From positions 1,504,001 to 1,568,000 of the forward strand of contig CM000150.2 of the NCBI GenBank assembly GCA_000004695.1: a stretch of 64,000 nucleotides of DNA. Direction: 5' to 3'. The DNA comes from Dictyostelium discoideum. Its lineage: Eukaryota. The position numbers were made by a program, and so were the translations under genes. Shown piece after piece: positions 2,380-11,878 of the stretch (position 1 is the first letter of the stretch; every line of letters starts with the position of its first letter). The notes under the pieces are model-generated. The model worked only from the letters and a program-made list of their open reading frames with translations. It did no database searches and was not told where the DNA came from.

Positions 2380-3950
2380 ATGTTTTGGTTTTTTTTTTTT
2401 TTTTTTTTTTTTTTATTTTTATTATGGAATGTAAAAAAATTGTTGGGAATCGAACCTTTTTTTTTTTTTTTTGATATAAATAAACTATTGTAGTATACAA
2501 TTAGTATGTTATTTTTATTTATTTATTTTAGGTTTTTTAATTTTTGTGAATTTAAAATGGTATGTTATTTTAGATTAGGTAATTAATAATTAATTGGTGG
2601 TGTAATTGTTGGAATTGGTTCATTAGTGTTTATGCTCCATTCTTTTTTAAATTTTTTGATTGTTTCGGACCATTGGGTTTCTTTTTGAGTTTTTGTGAGG
2701 TTGTTTTTAATTGAGTATTGGTTAAAGTTTGATAATGTTCTTGAATATTCCAATCTTTTTAGCTTGTGCCATTTTGATTTTAATATATCATAATCTAATG
2801 TTGTGTTGTTTATTTGGTTGTTCCAATTATCAATTGATTGAGTTATATTGATGTCAAATAATGATTTGCATAACCATATCCATATTTGGTGAATAACTAA
2901 TGAGATTATGTTCCAATATGCATGTGTTTTGACTAGATCAAGATTTGTGTTTATATAATTCCAGTTGAACCTGTATTTTTTATATTGTGCATTTTTTGCA
3001 AAATGAAAATTAATATTGATAGTTGGATCTGGTTTAAATGCTTTGTTGTTTATTTGTGGTTTATAAATGAGTGTGTATAATTTTGTTGTTTGGTTTTTTG
3101 TTAGTGACCAGTTTTTGTTTCCATTGCAATTTTTATATATAAAATATTTTAATTTGTCGTGGTTTATGAAGTTGATTGTGTGCTGACAATTGAAAAACAA
3201 ATGACCATAGGGGTCATTATTCATTTCATTTTTGCAAATGGGGCCAACTTTGTTGTGTAGATGATTAATTTGCATTGTATCACGGCCTTTTGGATCTTTT
3301 AATTTTTGAATTTTGACAAATAGTTGGTGGTATGTGTATTTCCATAATAGTTGTATTGATTGTTGGTGCGAAGTAAGAAGTAGATCTGAATATTTCTTGC
3401 CACCTCCGCCCATATTAAATTTAATATGGACACCACATAGTCTTTTGATTTGCATTGGTGATTGTTGAGTATTGTAGAGTAGATTTCTTTGAGTGTTGGT
3501 GGTAGTGAAATATTATTTGTGATTAATGTTTGAGAGGTTTGGTTTTTTATTAATATTGGTTGTAGGGTTTGAACTTTATCTTTTAGATGTCCAATTTGAG
3601 TTGCATAGTTTTCCCATTCTTTTTTAATTTTTATAAGGTATGGAGAAGAGATTGATTTGTTGATTATTTGATCCATCCAACTTATCATGTATATTGAATT
3701 GTTTGCAGATTTATGCATTTGTAAAAATCTGTTGTATATCCAAATCTTTTGAGCAACTTGTCGTAATTGTATATTCCAAAATACCCCAACCACCTTCTTT
3801 TAATGGTTTTAATGATCTATCATAACACATCAAAGGTATTTTTTCACGTGAATGGATGGTTAATGTGTTGTTTTCAATGGAATTGGTATTGAGAGAATTC
3901 ATAAACCATGAGATTAATTTATTAATTTGAATTTCTTCATCTTTTGTAAA
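2380..3950 (-). mobile_element. Degenerate, 5'-truncated non-LTR (TRE-like) retrotransposon remnant. Three overlapping minus-strand ORFs in different frames (2583-3455, 3299-3793, 3711-3902) mark a frameshifted ORF2 C-terminus.
   Basis: A coding-like minus-strand stretch of about 1.3 kb is broken by frameshifts. It contains a Cys/His motif, PICKNEMNNDPYGHLFFNCQH (H-x4-C), reminiscent of non-LTR ORF2 C-terminal domains. A plus-strand poly-T run at ~2388-2414 reads as an oligo(A) tail on the minus strand. The remnant lies about 100-140 bp downstream of the minus-strand tRNA-Trp gene at 4042-4128, which is where TRE3-type elements target. Confidence 0.4.
2445..2456 (-). promoter_or_regulatory. 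Orphan external B box (ggttcgattccc on minus) with no tRNA gene beside it.
   Basis: The sequence ttgttgggaatcgaacc is identical to the ex-B boxes at 3998-4009 and 7307-7318, and it is flanked by T runs. No tRNA-like sequence occupies the expected position at 2480-2570. Confidence 0.4.
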
Positions 3951-3997
3951 TTCTTCAAGTTAGAAATCAAAATAATGTTAAATTGAATAAATTTGTT

Positions 3998-4009
3998 GGG
4001 AATCGAACC
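3998..4009 (-). promoter_or_regulatory. External B box (GGTTCGATTCCC) 33 nt downstream of the tRNA-Trp 3' end.
   Basis: Dictyostelium tRNA genes typically carry an extra B box about 30-40 bp downstream. A pol III T-run terminator (TGTCATTTTTTT on minus) sits between the tRNA and this box. Confidence 0.6.
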
Positions 4010-4041
4010 TTTGATTTTAGAAAGTCTCTTAAAAAAATGAC

Positions 4042-4128
4042 AGACCCCTCAGGGAGTTGAACCCTGGACCAACTGCTAACTTCTAACGTTTTGGAGACAA
4101 TTACAATAAACCACTATGCTAAGGAGTC
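4042..4128 (-). tRNA. tRNA-Trp (anticodon CCA), 87 nt including a ~14-nt intron directly 3' of the anticodon loop.
   Basis: The minus strand reads GACTCCTTAGCATAGTGGTTTATTGTAATTGTCTCCAAAAC..GCAGTTGGTCCAGGGTTCAACTCCCTGAGGGGTCT. The acceptor stem GACTCCT pairs with AGGGGTC through one G-U pair. The T arm is CAGGG-TTCAACT-CCCTG with B box GGTTCAACTCC. The anticodon loop is CTCCAAA (CCA). The internal A box is TAGCATAGTGG. A T-run terminator and an ex-B box lie downstream. Confidence 0.7.
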
Positions 4129-4129
4129 T

Positions 4130-4385
4130 TTGAAAATTCACTGGATGAAACACTTTGTTAACACCTCATTTTTTTCGGTGAAACACTATGTTATGGAGTC
4201 ATTAATTTTTATGTCAATAACATGCTGGAATTTAGCTGGCGAAAATTAAAATTGAAAACCAATTGGATGACTCACTTTCCTAAGCCCTCATTTTTTTGGG
4301 TGAAACACTATGTTAAGAAGTCATTACTTTTTATGTCAATAATATGCTGAAATTAAGCTGGCAAATATTAATATTATACCTAGTT
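4130..4385. repeat. Degenerate tandem repeat of about 125 bp (about 2.3 units) derived from the tRNA-Trp 5' half and its 5' flank.
   Basis: The unit ggtgaaacactatgtta(t/a)g(g/a)agtcatta..tttttatgtcaataacatgctggaatttagctggcgaaaattaaaattgaaaaccaattggatgactcactttcctaagccctcattttttt is repeated. It contains several degenerate copies of the tRNA 5' motif cacTxTGcTAAGGAGTC. Confidence 0.6.
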
Positions 4386-4774
4386 ATAATAATTACAAAA
4401 AACAAATAGTTTTTTTTTTTAAAAAAAGAGGTATAAAAAAATTATATGGATTAATAATAATAAATTTTTTTGAATAACAATTAAATATTATTATTTTGGC
4501 GAATGCACATCACTTATTGAATTTCTTTTTTTATTTTTTATTTTTTTATATATACCCCATTGTAAAGCTTAATAAAGTAAAAAATATTAAATCCATTTAT
4601 CTAATTAATAGATGAAGTAAAAAAAAATTATATATCGTATAGTGATTTTTTAGTGTTCTATCTATACTAATAAATATTAATAATGAATATTAAAAATAAT
4701 TAAAATTAAATCATTGTTAAAAAAAAAAAAAAAATGAATTTAATCGTTCTGTTTTTTTTTTTTTAATTTTTATT

Positions 4775-5041
4775 TTCTCCAGCTAAATTCCAACATGTTA
4801 ATAGCTTAAAAAAATGAATGTATTAATTCTGTTTTTAGCTGGCAAAAATTAAAATTGAAAACCAACTGGATGGCACACTTTGCTAATGTCTCATTTTTTT
4901 AATTAGTTATCAACCTGAAAATAAACATAGTGGTTTATTGTATTTGTCTCCAAAAATGAGGGCTTAACAAAGTGTGCCATCCAGTTGGTTTTCAATTTTA
5001 ATTTTCGACAGCTAAAAACAGAATTAATACATTCATTTTTA
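4775..5041. repeat. Large imperfect inverted repeat (hairpin) built from the same repeat family. Arms are about 4807-4897 and 4951-5040. The ~55 bp spacer carries a plus-oriented partial tRNA-Trp copy (catagtggtttattgtatttgtctccaaaa).
   Basis: The reverse complement of 4951-5040 is nearly identical to 4807-4897 (aaaaatgaatgtattaattctgtttttagctggcaaaaattaaaattgaaaaccaactggatggcacactttgctaatgtctcattttt). Confidence 0.65.
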
Positions 5042-5431: not shown

Positions 5432-6298
5432 ATGTCAAAATTAGTCTCACAGTGGTTAAATGAATCATTCAAAGTTATCAGAAAGAGTCAAGTAATAAAA
5501 TATAAAGTACACTTAAAAAATGTAGACGATAGCATTAAAGAATATTTTGAAAAACCAGACACATTAATAAGAGTCAAAAAAGGTATGGTATTATTAACAG
5601 AAAATCTTGACTCAGTAAAATTTGCATCCTCTTGCTTTGACGAAGTGGAAGTGGAAAATTCAACAAAGATTAGTTTCCCATTAAAATTGAAACAACTGGA
5701 ATCTTTAGATTATTTGGATGCGATGCCTGAAGAACTCTCATCAAAGGTAGTCGAACGTCGAACATTTCCAAAAGAGATATCTTTCACCTTTGTTAATCTT
5801 GATGAGAAATGGGACACACATCAATTAACAAAGACTATAGAAAATCTTGATTTTCCCAAAAAAAAACTCCTACAAACCTATTACGCTCAGCATGAGCAAG
5901 AGCAAGAGCAAGAGCAAGAGCAAGAGCAAGAGCAAGAGCAAGAGCAAGAGCAAGAGCAAGAGCAACAGCAACAATTTATCCCCAGAACTAATAACTATGA
6001 AGATTTCAAAATATTACAAAAAAAACTAAGTAGACAGAAAATACAACAACAAATGATCAAAAAGGAAATCAAAAGAAGCTTCAAAAAAAACAAAAACAAA
6101 AATAACAACAACGACCACAAAAAGAACAAATTCGACAACAACGACCACAACAAGAACAAATTCGACAACAAATTCGACAACAACAAGATGAAAAAGAGTG
6201 ACAAGACGATAAAGAGGAAAAACAACACAAAAACAACACCAACCACAAGAACAACACAAACTACAAGAACAACACCAACAAAAAAAACACAAGAATAA
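5432..6298 (+). CDS. Hypothetical protein, 288 aa, with an (EQ)11 repeat and a lysine/asparagine-rich C-terminal tail.
   Basis: ATG-initiated intact ORF. The N-terminal 150 aa is non-repetitive (MSKLVSQWLNESFKVIRKSQVIKYKVHLKNVDD..) and the (GAGCAA)11 run at 5894-5962 is in frame. I recognise no domain. Confidence 0.5.
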   Translation: MSKLVSQWLNESFKVIRKSQVIKYKVHLKNVDDSIKEYFEKPDTLIRVKKGMVLLTENLDSVKFASSCFDEVEVENSTKISFPLKLKQLESLDYLDAMPEELSSKVVERRTFPKEISFTFVNLDEKWDTHQLTKTIENLDFPKKKLLQTYYAQHEQEQEQEQEQEQEQEQEQEQEQEQQQQFIPRTNNYEDFKILQKKLSRQKIQQQMIKKEIKRSFKKNKNKNNNNDHKKNKFDNNDHNKNKFDNKFDNNKMKKSDKTIKRKNNTKTTPTTRTTQTTRTTPTKKTQE

Positions 6299-7306
6299 CA
6301 AGAAAAACAAGAAAAGTAGCATGAACAACAACCACAGCAACATGTAAATTAAAAAATAGCAAAACAAAATATTAGTAACTTTTTATAATATTAAAATGAA
6401 TAAAATCTGAATGTATGGTTTGAAATCTTATTTATATAAACTCTCAAGTAAATTTTTTAAAAAAAAAATACCAGAAAGGCAGAGGAAAACGAATAAAACT
6501 TTGGAGGTTAGGTTTTTTTTTTTTAAATATAAAATCAGAAGTAATTGTGATGGTAAAGATAATAAATCATTTGTTCAAAATATTCACATTATTAAGTTTT
6601 ATTTGATCTATTAAAACTATTTATCATTAATATTTTATTAAGCAATAATTATAAAAAAACAATCTTTTTTGATTTAAATATAGGTGAGAATTCTCATTTT
6701 ATCAAGTGGTTTTATATATGTTTTTTTATAAGATTAAATAATTAAATAATAAAATTATGAAATTAATTTTTTTTTTTTTTTTTTTTTTCAGCACATTGAC
6801 CCACGAAGGCTGAGTTTGAACAACAGAGGTCTTTTAAATTTTAATCTTGTTGGATTTTTTTTTTTTTTTAATATTGAATAATAAGTGTTTATCCATTAAA
6901 GCAAATAAACAATAACTAATAGTTTTAGTTATTCATTTTCTTTAATTTTAATATTCAAATAAGGAATTTTAATAGTGTAGTAACTAATTTTTATTATTAT
7001 TATTATTAATATTGTTATCTTTTTTTAAAATATCGAGTTTTTAGATATGTTAAATATTAAATAAATTAATTTAATAAATCAAATAATATGATTATAATTG
7101 ATTAGATGAAATGGTATGATTTGGAAGAATCAGTTGATTCTTGCAAGTTAATTATCTTAATAATAGTATTTGTTTAAGGAAATCGTTTGGGTCTTTAAAA
7201 TTGTTCTGATCTTTTGAAAGAGTTAATTTACATGTTTTTTTTTTTTTTTTTATATATAAATATATATTCTGGAAATCAAATTAATGTTAAATTGAATAAA
7301 TTTGTT

Positions 7307-7318
7307 GGGAATCGAACC
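7307..7318 (-). promoter_or_regulatory. External B box for the second tRNA-Trp copy.
   Basis: Same sequence and the same 33-nt spacing as at 3998-4009. Confidence 0.6.
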
Positions 7319-7350
7319 TTTGATTTTAGAAAGTTTCTTAAAAAAATGAC

Positions 7351-7437
7351 AGACCCCTCAGGGAGTTGAACCCTGGACCAACTGCTAACTTCTAACGTTT
7401 TGGAGACAATTACAATAAACCACTATGCTAAGGAGTC
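7351..7437 (-). tRNA. tRNA-Trp (CCA) with intron, second copy. It is identical to 4042-4128 and lies inside a duplicated ~210 bp block (3963-4175 equals 7271-7483).
   Basis: The sequence gacccctcagggagttgaaccctggaccaactgctaacttctaacgttttggagacaattacaataaaccactatgctaaggagtc is identical to copy 1, and the flanks, including the ex-B box and the upstream cactttgctaagg(c/a)cctc motif, are conserved. Confidence 0.7.
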
Positions 7438-7924
7438 CTTGAAAAATCAATTGGATGAAACACTTTGCTAAGGCCTCAATTTTATTGGAAAACCCAAATT
7501 AATCAGAAAATTTCCAGATTTTTAACTTTTTAAAGTAAAATAAAAAATAGAAAGAAAATAAGATGAAAATTACAAACAACACCACAAATATTAAGCAACA
7601 CAAATGCCTACAAAAAATAAGCGAAATTGTGGATAAAACTCAAATAAAAAAAACAATTCAAATATGTCATCAACATCAATCACGAACCAGACGATAAAAT
7701 AAAAAAAGATTTAGAAAAAGTTTGGACAAAAAAGATGTTTAATCAAAAGTAATAATACAATTCAAAATTTGAAACAAAAAAAAAAAAAAAAAAAAAAAAA
7801 AAGTTAACTAACCCCTCTTTTAGAGACCCTGTAAAAAACTACAAATAAAATGAGATCAAGCAGGAGAAGCAACTAATAATTGCGTTATCCAATTCAAAAA
7901 AAAAAAAAAAAAAAAAGCCTCATT

Positions 7925-8090
7925 TTTTTGGAAACAAATACAATTACAATAAACCACTATGCTAAGGAGTCCTTGAAAACCAACTGGATGACACACTTTG
8001 CCAAGGTCTCATTTTTTGGGGTGAAACACTGTGCCAAGGAGTCATTACTTTTTATGTCAATAACATGCTGGAATCTAGCTGGCGAAAAAT
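7925..8090. repeat. Further copies (about 1.5 units) of the tRNA-Trp-derived ~125 bp repeat.
   Basis: The sequence caattacaataaaccactatgctaaggagtccttgaaaaccaactggatgacacactttgccaaggtctcattttttggggtgaaacactgtgccaaggagtcattactttttatgtcaataacatgctggaatctagctggcgaaaaat matches the 4130-4385 units. Confidence 0.6.
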
Positions 8091-8121
8091 AAAAAATAAA
8101 AAAAAACAGAATGATTACTTT

Positions 8122-8158
<37 letters not shown>

Positions 8159-8408
8159 CAAGGATTTAATTTTAATTATTTTTAATATTTATTAGTATAG
8201 ATAGAATACTAAAAAAATAATCAATATGATACAGAATTTTTTTTATTTTTTTGATGTCAAATTTGACGATGTTTTAATCACAAAAAATATCTTTTGAAAA
8301 AAAAAAAAAAAATCTTTTTTTTTTTTTTATTTTTTACTCACCAATTTTCTTTTTTTTTTATTTATAAATAATTTTTATAAACAAAAAAAAAAAAAAAAAG
8401 AAAAAGAA

Positions 8409-10206
8409 ATGAAATTTTCTTTATCTTTAATTTTTATAATAATTTCTGCAATTGTGAATGTAAACTCTCAAACAACTTGCAGATTTGCACCAACCTATAC
8501 ATTAAACGATATTATTAACTCTAATAATCAATCATTCATCAATGATGTATTATTTTGGGAAGGAAATGTATGTATGGAAATCAAAAAATTAATAAAAAAT
8601 AACAAAAAATATTAATAATTAATTTTTAAAATAAAAAAAAAAAAAAAGTTTCATTCAAATCAAGTTGGAGTAAATTATGAATGTGGATATACATATGATG
8701 GACATGAATTAAATTATATTACTGGAGAATTGGATTCACCATTACATGAATTCAGTGCACCATCAAAAGAATCAATTCATTTAGGAATGTTAGCATTGGC
8801 ATTGAATGAATGGGTTAATGAAGAACCGGAAAATTATAAAGCAATTAATTTTTTTCATCAAAACATAACTCGTACCACCACAGAACAAAACGAGATTCCA
8901 TATAGTGGTAATAGTAATTTTGACAATGCAATTACAATACTCTATAGAAAGATCAATACCTATCATCAATTTAATCAACGTTTTCCAGGATTTGGTGGAT
9001 TTCATCCATGGGTATCGGTTAATGATTCCGGTATTTTCTTATTAGATGGTTGGACCAACCAAGTACCAGGTTTGGATAATGGTGAAATGATTTGGGGACT
9101 TTATGCAGTATACAACCTATTAACCACTCAACCAACATTTATTAACAACTACCCCACACTCGGACCATTGTATGAAAAATATTTCCAAATATTAATTAAT
9201 AATGCAATGACAATATTCTATCAACCAAGTGGCTATATTAGTGCAGTTGTAGAAATCAATGATATCTATTCAACACCAACACCAAGCAATTATTTAAATC
9301 CAAGTGGATTATTAAATGATCCATATGAGGGTGAATTGTTGGTAGTGTTTATGGACTTGTTTTGCCAATGGCCATCTGAAGAGGCACGTGACCAAATTTG
9401 GATTAATAAAAGAGCATTATTACAATCAGTTGAATTCAATACCCATAGCAATACAAATATAACAGTTCAACGTGGTTGGTGGTTTTCATCACATGAACAA
9501 TGGAAATATTTAATGTTACCTTATCAAGAGATTGAAATTAATCAACGTGTTTTCCGTAATGGTGAAAGGGCAAGAACTTGGTTCTCCTCAATTAATAATT
9601 ATCCTGGTTTATTTGCTTCTGTAACAAATGTAACTGAAATCAATCAAAATAATGGCTACGTTAGTGCAACTGGTATTAGTGAAATTGCTTTTCAACAACA
9701 AGTTACCAATGCATTAATAACACCATATGCTTCATTTCCATTATTTTTAATTCATGATCAACCATCATTAGGTCTTTCTTGGTATTATACAATGTTAAAT
9801 GGTCCTTCAATGCAAAATCCATTTGGTAGTACTGAATCTGTTAATATAATTGGTACAGGTAAATAATTAATTAATTTATTACATATTTAAATCAAAAAAA
9901 TTCTTTTTTTTTTTTATTTTACTAATTTTATTTTTATTTTTATTTTTAGAAATTGCATCTGTAATTACTTGGGATTCAAAGATTACAACAGTTTTATCAA
10001 TGTTGGGTGGTATTTCAAATATTAATTTACAATTTTTAAAATCAAATGGATTATTTGAACGTTTTTCAACTGTAATTGATAGAGAATGGTCATTGGCTTT
10101 CCCAAATTTAAATGGTGAAAATTTACCATTTATGTATCCGTCACGAGATGTTACAATTCCAAAAATTTTAAATGATTTTACAAATTGTACATTAAAAAAG
10201 ATTTAA
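8409..10206 (+). CDS. Secreted protein of about 540 aa, unknown function, in 3 exons: 8409-8567, 8649-9858, 9950-10206.
   Basis: Exon 1 encodes a signal peptide (MKFSLSLIFIIISAIVNVNSQ). A GTATGT donor at 8568 and an AG at 8647-8648 keep frame into the 378-aa ORF. A second donor, gtaaat at 9859 (phase 1), with an acceptor tttag at 9945-9949, joins the ORF ending in TLKKI at 10206. I recognise no domain (..GFGGFHPWVSVNDSGIFLLDGWTNQVPGLDNGEMIWGLYAVYNLL..). Confidence 0.55.
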
Positions 10207-10263: not shown

Positions 10264-11878
10264 TTATGATTCTAATGGTTTAATATCGTTATTAATATTA
10301 ACTTCAATTGAAAAGTCTATAACTAAACTATCATCTTTTAACCAAACTTCTGGTTTTTTTCCAGGTTCTGTTGATTTTATAAAATAATGACAACCAACTG
10401 ATTTTTCTTTATCCATAACTTTTTAAATAATCAAAGAAAAAAAAAAAAAAAAAAAGTTAATATATATTATTAGAAAAAAATAAACAATTATTTCCAATTT
10501 GATTAATTTTAATTAATAACTTACTTGATTTATTTTTAAAAATAAGATTTTTAGATTCATCTTTAAAATTAAGTAAAACAAATTTATAAAATACTTTAAT
10601 TGGATTAATTGAATCAGATTTTAAAAAAAGTGAAGTATATGAACCATCGTCTTTACCTTGTGGATAAATTACCAATTTAAATTTTTTATCATAAATTTTA
10701 AAAGATGGAGAAGTAATTTTTCTATATTTTCTTGATTCGGTTAAATAATTTGAAATTGACCATCTATTTTTATATTTAAGTAAACAACCATTAATAAAAT
10801 ATGAATTAACTTTTGAAACTTTTTCAAATAAATCATCAAATTTAATTCTTTCTTGTTGTTCTTTTTGTTCTTTTTGTTCTTTTTGTTCTTTTTGTTGTGG
10901 TTGTTGATTATCTTTTGGATATAAATCTAATTGAAGATTATTTAATTTTTTATCAATTTTAGATTCAAATTGATAAAATTTATCATAGAGTTGGTCACAT
11001 TTTGATTCAGTTTCAAGTTGTTCAAGTTTATTGATCTTATTTAAAAGATTTTCATATTTGATATTGGTTTCTTTGATTTGTAATGATTGAGATTCAATCA
11101 TTGAACCCATTGCAAGTGTATGATTAATTGAACTAAGATGTTGAGTTAAATTTGATTTTGGGAATCTATTTGATTGTTCACAACCATATATTTTGTATGG
11201 ACAATCGATCATTACCATTTGGCATTGTTTTTCAATGTGTGATTCTAATTGAGATCTCTCCAATTGAACGGTACATCCATTTTCACTGCATTTCACAATA
11301 AACTTTGGACATTCTTTATAATGATTCTCTAATGATCTTGATGTTATACCATCGGTATCACAATATCTACAATATTCTAATCTAAATTCACATTGTTCTT
11401 TTTCATGTTTTTCAACTTGATTTAATCTAATAATTTTATTACATCCAATAAATTTACATTTTATATGTGTAAATTTACATTGTTTTAAATGTTTTTCAAT
11501 TTCACCAATTGTTATAATATCTTTACATCCATTTTCTAAATCTTTGATTTTATTATTATTATTTTTATTTTCATCAATATATTTAAATGAATTTGGACAA
11601 TTAACTTTTATATTTAAAAAATCTTGTTCAATGAATCTATTTCTTGATAGTTCTGAAATTGATTTAACTATACATCTACATATCATACATTCTTTTTTTT
11701 TAAACAATGATTCTGCCCAACATGTTTTGCAAAACCAATGAATTTCTTTACATTGATAAATTTCTTTTTTATATACTGATTCATAACAAATTGAACATGA
11801 ATACTTTTCAATATTTACATCTTCATAAAAAATATCTGTTAAATTATATTGTATAAAATAATGTGTATATTCTGCCAT
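10264..11878 (-). CDS. TRAF-like protein with RING finger, TRAF-type zinc fingers, a coiled coil and a MATH domain. Two exons: 10525-11878 and 10264-10418.
   Basis: N-terminal C3HC4 RING (CSICYESV..CKEIHWFCKTCW..CMICR), then repeated C/H TRAF zinc-finger motifs, a coiled coil (KINKLEQLETESK) and a MATH-like C-terminus. The minus-strand GTAAGT donor at 10524-10519 and the AG at 10420-10419 splice in a final exon, IMDKEKSVGCHYFIKSTEPGKKPEVWLKDDSLVIDFSIEVNINNDIKPLES*, that completes the MATH domain. Confidence 0.75.

Follow-up and report, generated by a model that had tools for sequence, protein, structure and literature searches.

The window analysed here, a 64-kb stretch of the Dictyostelium discoideum genome, has a GC content of ~22%, and its open reading frames are rich in Asn/Gln runs. 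Within it ARAGORN found exactly two tRNA genes, both tRNA-Trp(CCA) and both on the minus strand, one at 4042-4128 (copy A) and the other at 7351-7437 (copy B). The two copies are 100% identical to each other over their 87 nt, intron included, and each scores 44.8 bits against the Rfam family RF00005 (gathering score 29) with the anticodon CCA. ARAGORN and Rfam agree in this with an earlier note, written from the letters of the window, which had proposed two identical intron-containing tRNA-Trp(CCA) genes at these positions. In the Rfam covariance-model alignment a 14-nt insertion directly follows CUCCAA in the anticodon loop. One A of this insertion is nucleotide 38 and belongs to the exon, so we read the intron as 13 nt (AACGTTAGAAGTT; 4078-4090 in copy A and 7387-7399 in copy B, minus strand) at the canonical 37/38 site; its place 3' of the anticodon had been recognised before, and it is the length, then given as about 14 nt, that had to be corrected. 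C32 has a possible pairing partner in a G three nucleotides before the 3' splice site, in line with a rule for such introns, and excision would fall, by the standard pathway, to the tRNA splicing endonuclease and ligase. For comparison, syntenic loci were retrieved via the neighbouring genes from D. cf. discoideum (L003), a divergent D. discoideum strain (L004), D. firmibasis (L005) and D. purpureum (L006).

Both genes carry an A box of the form TRGCNNAGTGG, a B box of the form GTTCRANYC and a T-run terminator. By sequence inspection, the A box of copy A is TAGCATAGTGG (4111-4121) and its B box GGTTCAACTCC (4053-4063), both on the minus strand. Extended, the internal B box reads GTCCAGGGTTCAACTC in both genes and fits the published GTCnnnnGTTCRAnYC (PMC3159450). 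The T-run terminators and external B boxes of the earlier note were also found: a T7 run preceded by GTCA lies at 4031-4037 after copy A and at 7340-7346 after copy B, on the minus strand as are the genes, and the external B-box core, GGTTCGATTCC, begins at the 33rd nucleotide after each gene. The full 17-nt external box of copy A (GGTTCGATTCCCAACAA; 3993-4009, core 3999-4009, minus strand) is 32 nt past the gene end and 54 nt past the internal B box, and that of copy B (7302-7318, core 7308-7318, minus strand) is likewise 32 nt past the gene end. The external-box pattern occurs three times in the window, with 0 expected by chance, and the box holds the same position in four lineages. In its consensus, its strand and its distance of a few tens of bp from the gene it agrees with the Dictyostelium external B box, which has been described ~41 bp downstream in 66% of D. 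discoideum tRNA genes (PMC3159450). In its anatomy each gene is a standard RNA polymerase III unit: the A and B boxes are internal, the terminator is a T7 run, and a B box of the external kind typical of Dictyostelium follows ~54 nt past the internal one. In an alignment of 7 copies from 4 lineages, 74 of 74 exon positions are invariant and the intron varies at 3 positions. The earlier note had held that a pseudogene, or a functional tRNA-Trp of another sequence elsewhere in the genome, would speak against its call; the invariance of the exons in these 7 copies came out for function. Judged by exon conservation and promoter anatomy, both loci are functional nuclear tRNA-Trp(CCA) genes. Exact-pattern scans of metagenome and genome contigs with the tRNA 5' half and 3' half gave no match.

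Each gene has a retrotransposon beside it. Downstream of copy A lies a 5'-truncated non-LTR retrotransposon of the TRE3 type (2457-3962, minus strand, in the orientation of the tRNA gene), with its poly(A) at 2457-2472 and its 5' end 80 nt downstream of the gene. TRE3 elements are described as inserting ~100 bp downstream of tRNA genes (PMC5006619), and the present element agrees with them in position and in its poly(A). An ORF2 with reverse transcriptase also marks the family: the open reading frame at 2586-3455 is 100% identical to DDB_G0268440 of D. discoideum AX4, and protein relatives carry the reverse transcriptase domain PF00078. Pfam found no domain on the TRE3 ORF fragments or on the neighbouring ORFs of the window. 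In another D. discoideum assembly (loci L001 and L002), copies 95% identical to this multi-copy element lie in the same orientation downstream of two tRNA-Val genes and one tRNA-Gly gene. Directly 3' of the TRE3 poly(A) is an orphan third copy of the 17-nt external B box (2440-2456, minus strand), and this copy and the box at 3993-4009 bracket a 30-nt segment, TRE3 and the poly(A) in the manner of a 17-bp target-site duplication. The divergent strain, which has no TRE3 at copy A, carries only one external B box there, and this box adjoins the downstream flank that follows the orphan copy in the window.

Copy B has a retrotransposon on its 5' side. This is the 5'-truncated tail of a TRE5-A element (7489-7916, plus strand), placed 51 nt from the gene in head-to-head orientation and made up of a B-module (~7494-7769), a C-module (~7824-7907) and a poly(A) at 7896-7916. 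It is flanked by a target-site duplication of 15-16 nt, the proximal copy of which (CCAATAAAATTGAGGC; 7473-7488, minus strand) has its distal partner at 7917-7931 (CCAAAAAAATGAGGC). Compared with an element adjoining a tRNA-Leu gene in L002, in which the B-module is duplicated with one on each side of an ORF, the tail is 94.6% identical to the B-module and 86% identical to the C-module. TRE5 elements insert ~50 bp upstream of tRNA genes with their 5' end always facing the tRNA 5' end (PMC5391098), and the position and orientation of TRE5-A relative to tRNA genes have also been published in PMC3159450; by position, B and C modules, poly(A) and target-site duplication the tail belongs to this family. 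The insertion is absent at copy B of the divergent strain. In D. cf. discoideum a TRE5-A element sits at about -46, but it was inserted independently and is flanked by a separate target-site duplication of 17 bp. Both elements of the window would be later insertions by tRNA-gene-targeted retrotransposons, TRE3 at 80 nt downstream of copy A and TRE5-A at ~50 nt upstream of copy B.

BLAST aligned a block around copy A (3963-4173) with one around copy B (7272-7483), both on the minus strand, at 95.3% identity over 212 columns, and the ungapped core of this block, 3963-4140 against 7272-7449, is 98% identical. The earlier note had described a unit of ~210 bp duplicated 3.3 kb apart, which stands, with about 50 bp of 5' flank, which is closer to 45 bp. 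The limits of the block coincide with the retrotransposons, its 3' limit in copy A being the TRE3 junction at 3962/3963 and its 5' limit in copy B the TRE5-A junction at 7488/7489. The ends of the ~210-bp unit are thus retrotransposon junctions and therefore not the boundaries of a mobile or amplifying unit. Moreover, BLAST found lower-identity homology beyond both inserts, at 4097-4251 against 7940-8094 (87.7%) and at 2168-2221 against 6860-6913 (90.7%), together with an inverted match of 74% between 4620-4817 and 8244-8042. Overall, the outer flanks of the two copies are only 74-90% identical with many indels and are far more diverged than the core. Because homology resumes beyond the inserts, and in more diverged form, we read the true duplicated segment as about 1 kb long and old. 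A simple 3.3-kb tandem duplication was rejected, since the genes that flank and separate the two copies share no similarity in BLAST.

The comparison with other lineages bears on the age of the pair and on its near-identity. Both tRNA-Trp genes occupy the same two intergenic intervals in the window, in D. cf. discoideum and in the divergent strain, and the outer flanks are orthologous to those of D. cf. discoideum (2111-2225 against 8343-8449 for copy A; 7141-7464 against 11542-11840 for copy B). In D. firmibasis a lone copy stands between the outer genes, and the ORF that lies between copies A and B elsewhere is missing; at the syntenic position in D. purpureum there is no tRNA-Trp gene. In the alignment of seven sequences the trailers are lineage-specific, yet they are the same in both paralogs of each lineage. 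Among the variable sites of the block in four sequences, 22 are alike in paralogs, 0 are alike in orthologs and 1 is of the ABBA type. Flank states that are shared by paralogs and exons that do not vary, combined with synteny, lead us to propose gene conversion together with purifying selection. This pattern indicates that the near-identity of the pair would be explained by gene conversion between the paralogs, and the high-identity block is read accordingly as the putative conversion tract.

One part of the block fits this explanation less well. The 30-nt segment at 3963-3992, which we call S1, is common to both copies (7272-7301 in copy B), yet in copy A it lies inside the apparent target-site duplication of TRE3. 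That S1 might be the 5' end of TRE3 was rejected, other TRE3 copies having a different sequence upstream of that point. The presence of S1 in both copies is not fully explained by simple conversion, and it may have originated in an aborted conversion, as filler copied from the paralog, or by 5' transduction.

Around the two genes we found a set of short modules, most of them derived from the 5' part of the tRNA. Directly 5' of each gene is module Y, of 39-40 nt, which is colinear with tRNA positions 1-40; the best Y copy scores 11, equal to the maximum among 19,292 random 40-mers of the window (null mean -6.1, sd 4.1). The earlier note had seen in this flank a degenerate copy of the tRNA 5' half, which is correct but understated, units of 33-50 nt from the tRNA 5' end being arranged here in local arrays. 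At copy A, all on the minus strand, Y (4129-4167) adjoins the gene and is followed outwards by X (4168-4200), also derived from the tRNA 5' half, and by Z (4201-4240), a 40-nt module that accompanies X and Y; then come a second Y (4251-4289), a second X (4290-4322) and a second Z (4323-4362), the Y and X again derived from the tRNA 5' half, so that the array at 4129-4362 consists of a ~122-nt unit twice in tandem. At copy B, also on the minus strand, Y (7438-7477) forms the 5' leader that adjoins the gene, and past TRE5-A the array continues over 7922-8083 with a long form of X (7922-7971), the first 32 nt of which match the tRNA 5' end perfectly, and with Y (7972-8010), X (8011-8043) and Z (8044-8083). 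The order of the modules is therefore Z-X-Y-Z-X-Y-tRNA at copy A and Z-X-Y-Xlong-[TRE5-A]-Y-tRNA at copy B. Further out from copy A, an inverted module duplication spans 4810-5040, its arms (4810-4898 and 4952-5040) being 93% complementary; by sequence match it contains Y at 4854-4892 on the minus strand and at 4958-4996 on the plus strand, and a tRNA 5' fragment lies at 4926-4957 on the plus strand. The X modules are decayed copies of the tRNA 5' end, in units of 33-50 nt placed in tandem or inverted. The modules keep an A-box-like core, TAGCA(A/T)AGTG, and stop short of the B box.

The arrays differ between lineages. In the divergent strain, two units adjoin copy A directly and copy B is preceded by a tandem run of seven units of ~34 nt; in D. 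firmibasis the tRNA-derived sequence is an inverted fragment. D. cf. discoideum has five longer tRNA-Trp pseudogene units, each of which also holds the first part of the intron, a T run and what remains of the 3' acceptor strand, and some of these units are flanked by short inverted sequences and recur at a spacing of ~550 bp. The 33-50-nt unit that derives from the tRNA 5' end and contains the A box may thus behave like a fast-evolving minisatellite, with 2 to at least 7 units, differing among lineages of the D. discoideum complex. We also considered that the 5'-half units could be retro-copies of a released 5' exon; this was rejected, as the units of D. cf. discoideum run on past the exon into ~8 nt of intron and still show traces of the 3' acceptor strand and of the T run. 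Having this intron sequence, the units go back to DNA or to the unspliced precursor transcript, and not to spliced tRNA. No B box, poly(A) tail or target-site duplication was seen in the modules, which is why we read them as local partial duplications with fast turnover. They would be decaying partial copies of the gene 5' end, made by repeated local tandem or inverted duplication, possibly through slippage or unequal exchange, and are most likely non-functional by-products and not a vehicle that spreads the gene.

Taken together, we consider it very probable that the locus holds a functional pair of tRNA-Trp genes that arose by an old local duplication, was homogenised by conversion, later received TRE insertions and is surrounded by local, decaying partial copies. 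The duplication, of ~1 kb, would predate the split of the lineages of the D. discoideum complex; a core of about -45 to +80 around the gene would be homogenised by conversion between the paralogs, and purifying selection would keep the exons fixed. Other readings of the pair itself were weighed against this account. We think it extremely unlikely that one or both copies are pseudogenes. Such a reading could point to the U13-U22 mismatch that the Rfam alignment places in the D stem, and to the discriminator base, which is U73 in both genes where eukaryotic tRNA-Trp usually has A73. It could also point to the minimum-free-energy folds of the precursor and of the spliced tRNA, which have z-scores of -0.4 and -0.9 and form no cloverleaf, although uninformative folds of this kind are usual for unmodified tRNA sequences. 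Against it are the Rfam score, far over the threshold despite the intron, the intact A box, B box and terminator, and the exons, which do not vary at any of the 74 positions in the 7 copies of 4 lineages while the intron and the flanks change. A duplication made very recently, or one made separately by each lineage, could also account for the near-identity of the pair, in place of conversion in an old pair. Genes that are 100% identical and a core that is 98% identical are what such an origin predicts, it would equally yield sites that are alike in paralogs, and D. firmibasis has a single copy only. However, three lineages have the genes in the same two intergenic intervals, their outer flanks being orthologous, and between copies A and B the outer flanks, at 74-90% identity with many indels, have diverged far beyond the core. 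Independent duplication appears to be disfavoured by these two points only, synteny and the diverged outer flanks, and we regard recent or repeated duplication as improbable.

The modules allow two further readings. The earlier note suggested that the tRNA gene is embedded in, and perhaps amplified with, a family of tRNA-derived repeats, that is, that a mobile element of a SINE-like or MITE-like kind carries the gene and amplifies it. Several modules derived from the tRNA 5' end around both genes, some of them inverted, are compatible with this idea, as are the short inverted flanks and the ~550-bp spacing of the pseudogene units in D. cf. discoideum. The evidence goes against it on several counts, and we judge it very unlikely. 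Every module copy in the 64-kb window lies within 1 kb of the two genes, and no X, Y or Z module was found in the ~60 kb that make up the rest of the window, at two unrelated D. discoideum tRNA loci or at the D. purpureum locus. The ends of the supposed unit are the TRE3 and TRE5-A junctions, which are absent in the divergent strain, and homology continues past the inserts. Both gene positions are syntenic across three lineages, and the identity of the genes would come from conversion. The modules are local, have neither a B box nor a poly(A) tail and are not flanked by target-site duplications; in the loci examined, they did not show the complete internal promoter of a tRNA-derived SINE, with both of its boxes, or its 3' tail, duplicated target sites and dispersal, and the inverted arrangements in the window and in D. 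cf. discoideum are inverted duplications of the modules themselves, again with no target-site duplications seen over this local coverage. Alternatively, the upstream modules could be functional, as an extra A box, in the positioning of TFIIIB or as a leader that pairs within the precursor, and be kept by selection. At both copies the proximal module does lie directly against the gene, the window and D. cf. discoideum agree without variation at about 16 of 37 leader positions, and the A-box-like core is retained. At the same time, the leader sequence and the type of module differ by lineage, the ACTFIW leaders ending in AAAAAAAGAT without a Y module and the D. firmibasis leader being unrelated; the number and orientation of modules vary freely and their sequences decay, and the conversion tract accounts for what conservation the leader shows inside a lineage. 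A function of this sort thus seems unlikely, and decaying partial copies of the gene 5' end remain the reading that we prefer.

The changes on the 3' side of the gene may be informative for the origin of external B boxes. In D. cf. discoideum, copy A is followed by a perfect 55-nt tandem re-copy, which takes in the B box, the terminator and the spacer and leaves two external B boxes. It shows that the B box and the external B box do undergo unequal exchange. The lineage-variable arrays of partial copies and this re-copy hint at how external B boxes could arise. A wider proposal, that Dictyostelium tRNA genes sprout partial tandem copies of both halves of their promoter, is one we put forward tentatively and hold to be rather doubtful. 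If it were general, the external B boxes found genome-wide, at 66% of tRNA genes, would go back to tandem duplications of a partial kind at Pol III genes, with stalled replication forks as a possible setting. The arrays of partial tRNA-Trp copies that vary among lineages, and the 55-nt re-copy in the sister lineage, might be of interest to specialists.

The main features of the locus have already been published for D. discoideum, and the pair is an ordinary one of a known kind. Beyond annotation it has little import, but it offers a clean worked example of Pol III anatomy, of tRNA-homing retrotransposons and of paralog homogenisation. Peffley and Sogin (Biochemistry, 1981) reportedly described, for D. 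discoideum, a tRNA-Trp gene whose 13-bp intervening sequence adjoins the anticodon and whose flanking DNA is repetitive; the present genes share with it the tRNA-Trp identity, the 13-bp anticodon-adjacent intron and the flanking repeats, a likeness that does not imply that it is the same locus. The D. discoideum genome paper is said to mention many identical tRNA gene pairs. For the serine tRNA genes of Schizosaccharomyces pombe, Amstutz et al. are said to have reported in 1985 intergenic conversion of dispersed tRNA genes. As in that system, homogenisation here takes in the paralogs with their short flanks and leaves the outer flanks to diverge; unlike it, conversion is proposed here from a comparison of lineages (22 against 0 sites) and not from genetics, and the copies are linked, 3.3 kb apart. 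With tRNA-derived SINEs the modules have in common sequence from the 5' part of a tRNA, A box included, but they lack the B box, the LINE-like or poly(A) tail and the target-site duplications, and their copies, in tandem or inverted, occur only at this locus in the DNA examined. The pair otherwise resembles the D. discoideum tRNA genes already described (PMC3159450, PMC5391098, PMC5006619), with internal A and B boxes, an extra B box downstream, TRE5-A ~50 bp upstream and head-to-head, TRE3 ~80-100 bp downstream, and poly(A) tails and target-site duplications, and the sole addition to these is the upstream array of partial 5'-end copies, for which we found no description in the Dictyostelium literature searched. 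Finally, the Entamoeba tRNA gene arrays (PMC2652664) are likewise amoebozoan tRNA genes beside fast-evolving short tandem repeats; they are long tandem units of whole genes with microsatellite-like spacers, whereas here there are two genes and the repeats are partial copies of the gene.

At the syntenic locus of D. cf. discoideum (L003), we found that the 3' end of copy A, the counterpart of one of the two identical tRNA-Trp(CCA) genes of the window, has been re-copied as a perfect tandem with a period of 55 nt (L003 8535-8645, minus strand). The repeated segment begins with the B box and takes in the 3' strand of the acceptor, the T run and the spacer. This re-copy results in two external B boxes there (in the window, one lies 32 nt after each gene), and it suggests that external B boxes can originate or multiply through partial tandem duplication. 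A third, orphan external B box lies in the window at 2440-2456, directly 3' of the poly(A) of TRE3, the 5'-truncated retrotransposon downstream of copy A. The 17-mers at 2440-2456 and 3993-4009 bracket the 30-nt segment S1, TRE3 and its poly(A) in the manner of a target-site duplication. S1 (3963-3992) is not TRE3 sequence and is also present at copy B (7272-7301); it may be filler from the paralog, the trace of an aborted conversion, or the product of 5' transduction.

Partial copies of the gene itself lie at the syntenic loci L003, L004 and L005. In strain ACTFIW (L004), seven tandem units of ~34 nt, with the sequence GACT(C/T)CTTAGCAT(A/T)G(T/C)GTTTCACCTAAAAAAA(G)AT, occupy 9330-9570 on the minus strand, ~300 bp upstream of copy B, and two further units abut copy A directly (L004 5320-5393). 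The source of these units is tRNA-Trp positions 1-20, and the array behaves like a minisatellite, varying among lineages. D. cf. discoideum carries five tRNA-Trp pseudogene units (L003 9143-9213, 9262-9314, 14303-14355, 14852-14905 and 15408-15461), each made of the 5' half with the start of the intron, an acceptor remnant and the T run, with the T arm deleted; two are arranged in a 118-nt tandem, the other three are spaced ~550 bp apart, and short inverted sequences, CCACTTTCGTTACACAATT for example, border some of the five units. In D. firmibasis (L005), part of the tRNA-Trp 5' end recurs in inverted orientation (GTGAAACCACTATGCTAAGCCCC, 9525-9550) ~75 nt upstream of the single gene, which places the making of partial copies before the A/B duplication.

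This species lacks the whole interval between the tRNA copies. In the window, that interval holds an 89-nt inverted repeat (4810-4898 and 4952-5040; arms 93% complementary, spacer 53 nt) composed of Y and Z modules, short repeats found by the two genes, with a reversed tRNA-Trp 5' fragment at its centre (4926-4957); the repeat could fold into a large hairpin or cruciform. The interval further contains a 288-aa ORF (5432-6298, plus strand). Its sole detectable homolog, from D. cf. discoideum, covers 53% of the query at 80% identity, and the ORF may represent a gene restricted to this lineage that originated, or was acquired, along with the duplication. The outer part of this old duplication is marked by a 54-nt block downstream of both copies (TTGTTTATTTCCTATAATGGATAAACAC..., 2168-2221 versus 6860-6913, 90.7% identity), kept in D. 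cf. discoideum and strain ACTFIW too. Each of the seven gene copies examined has U73 as its discriminator base (window positions 4042 and 7351 for copies A and B); in eukaryotic tRNA-Trp, A73 is usual.
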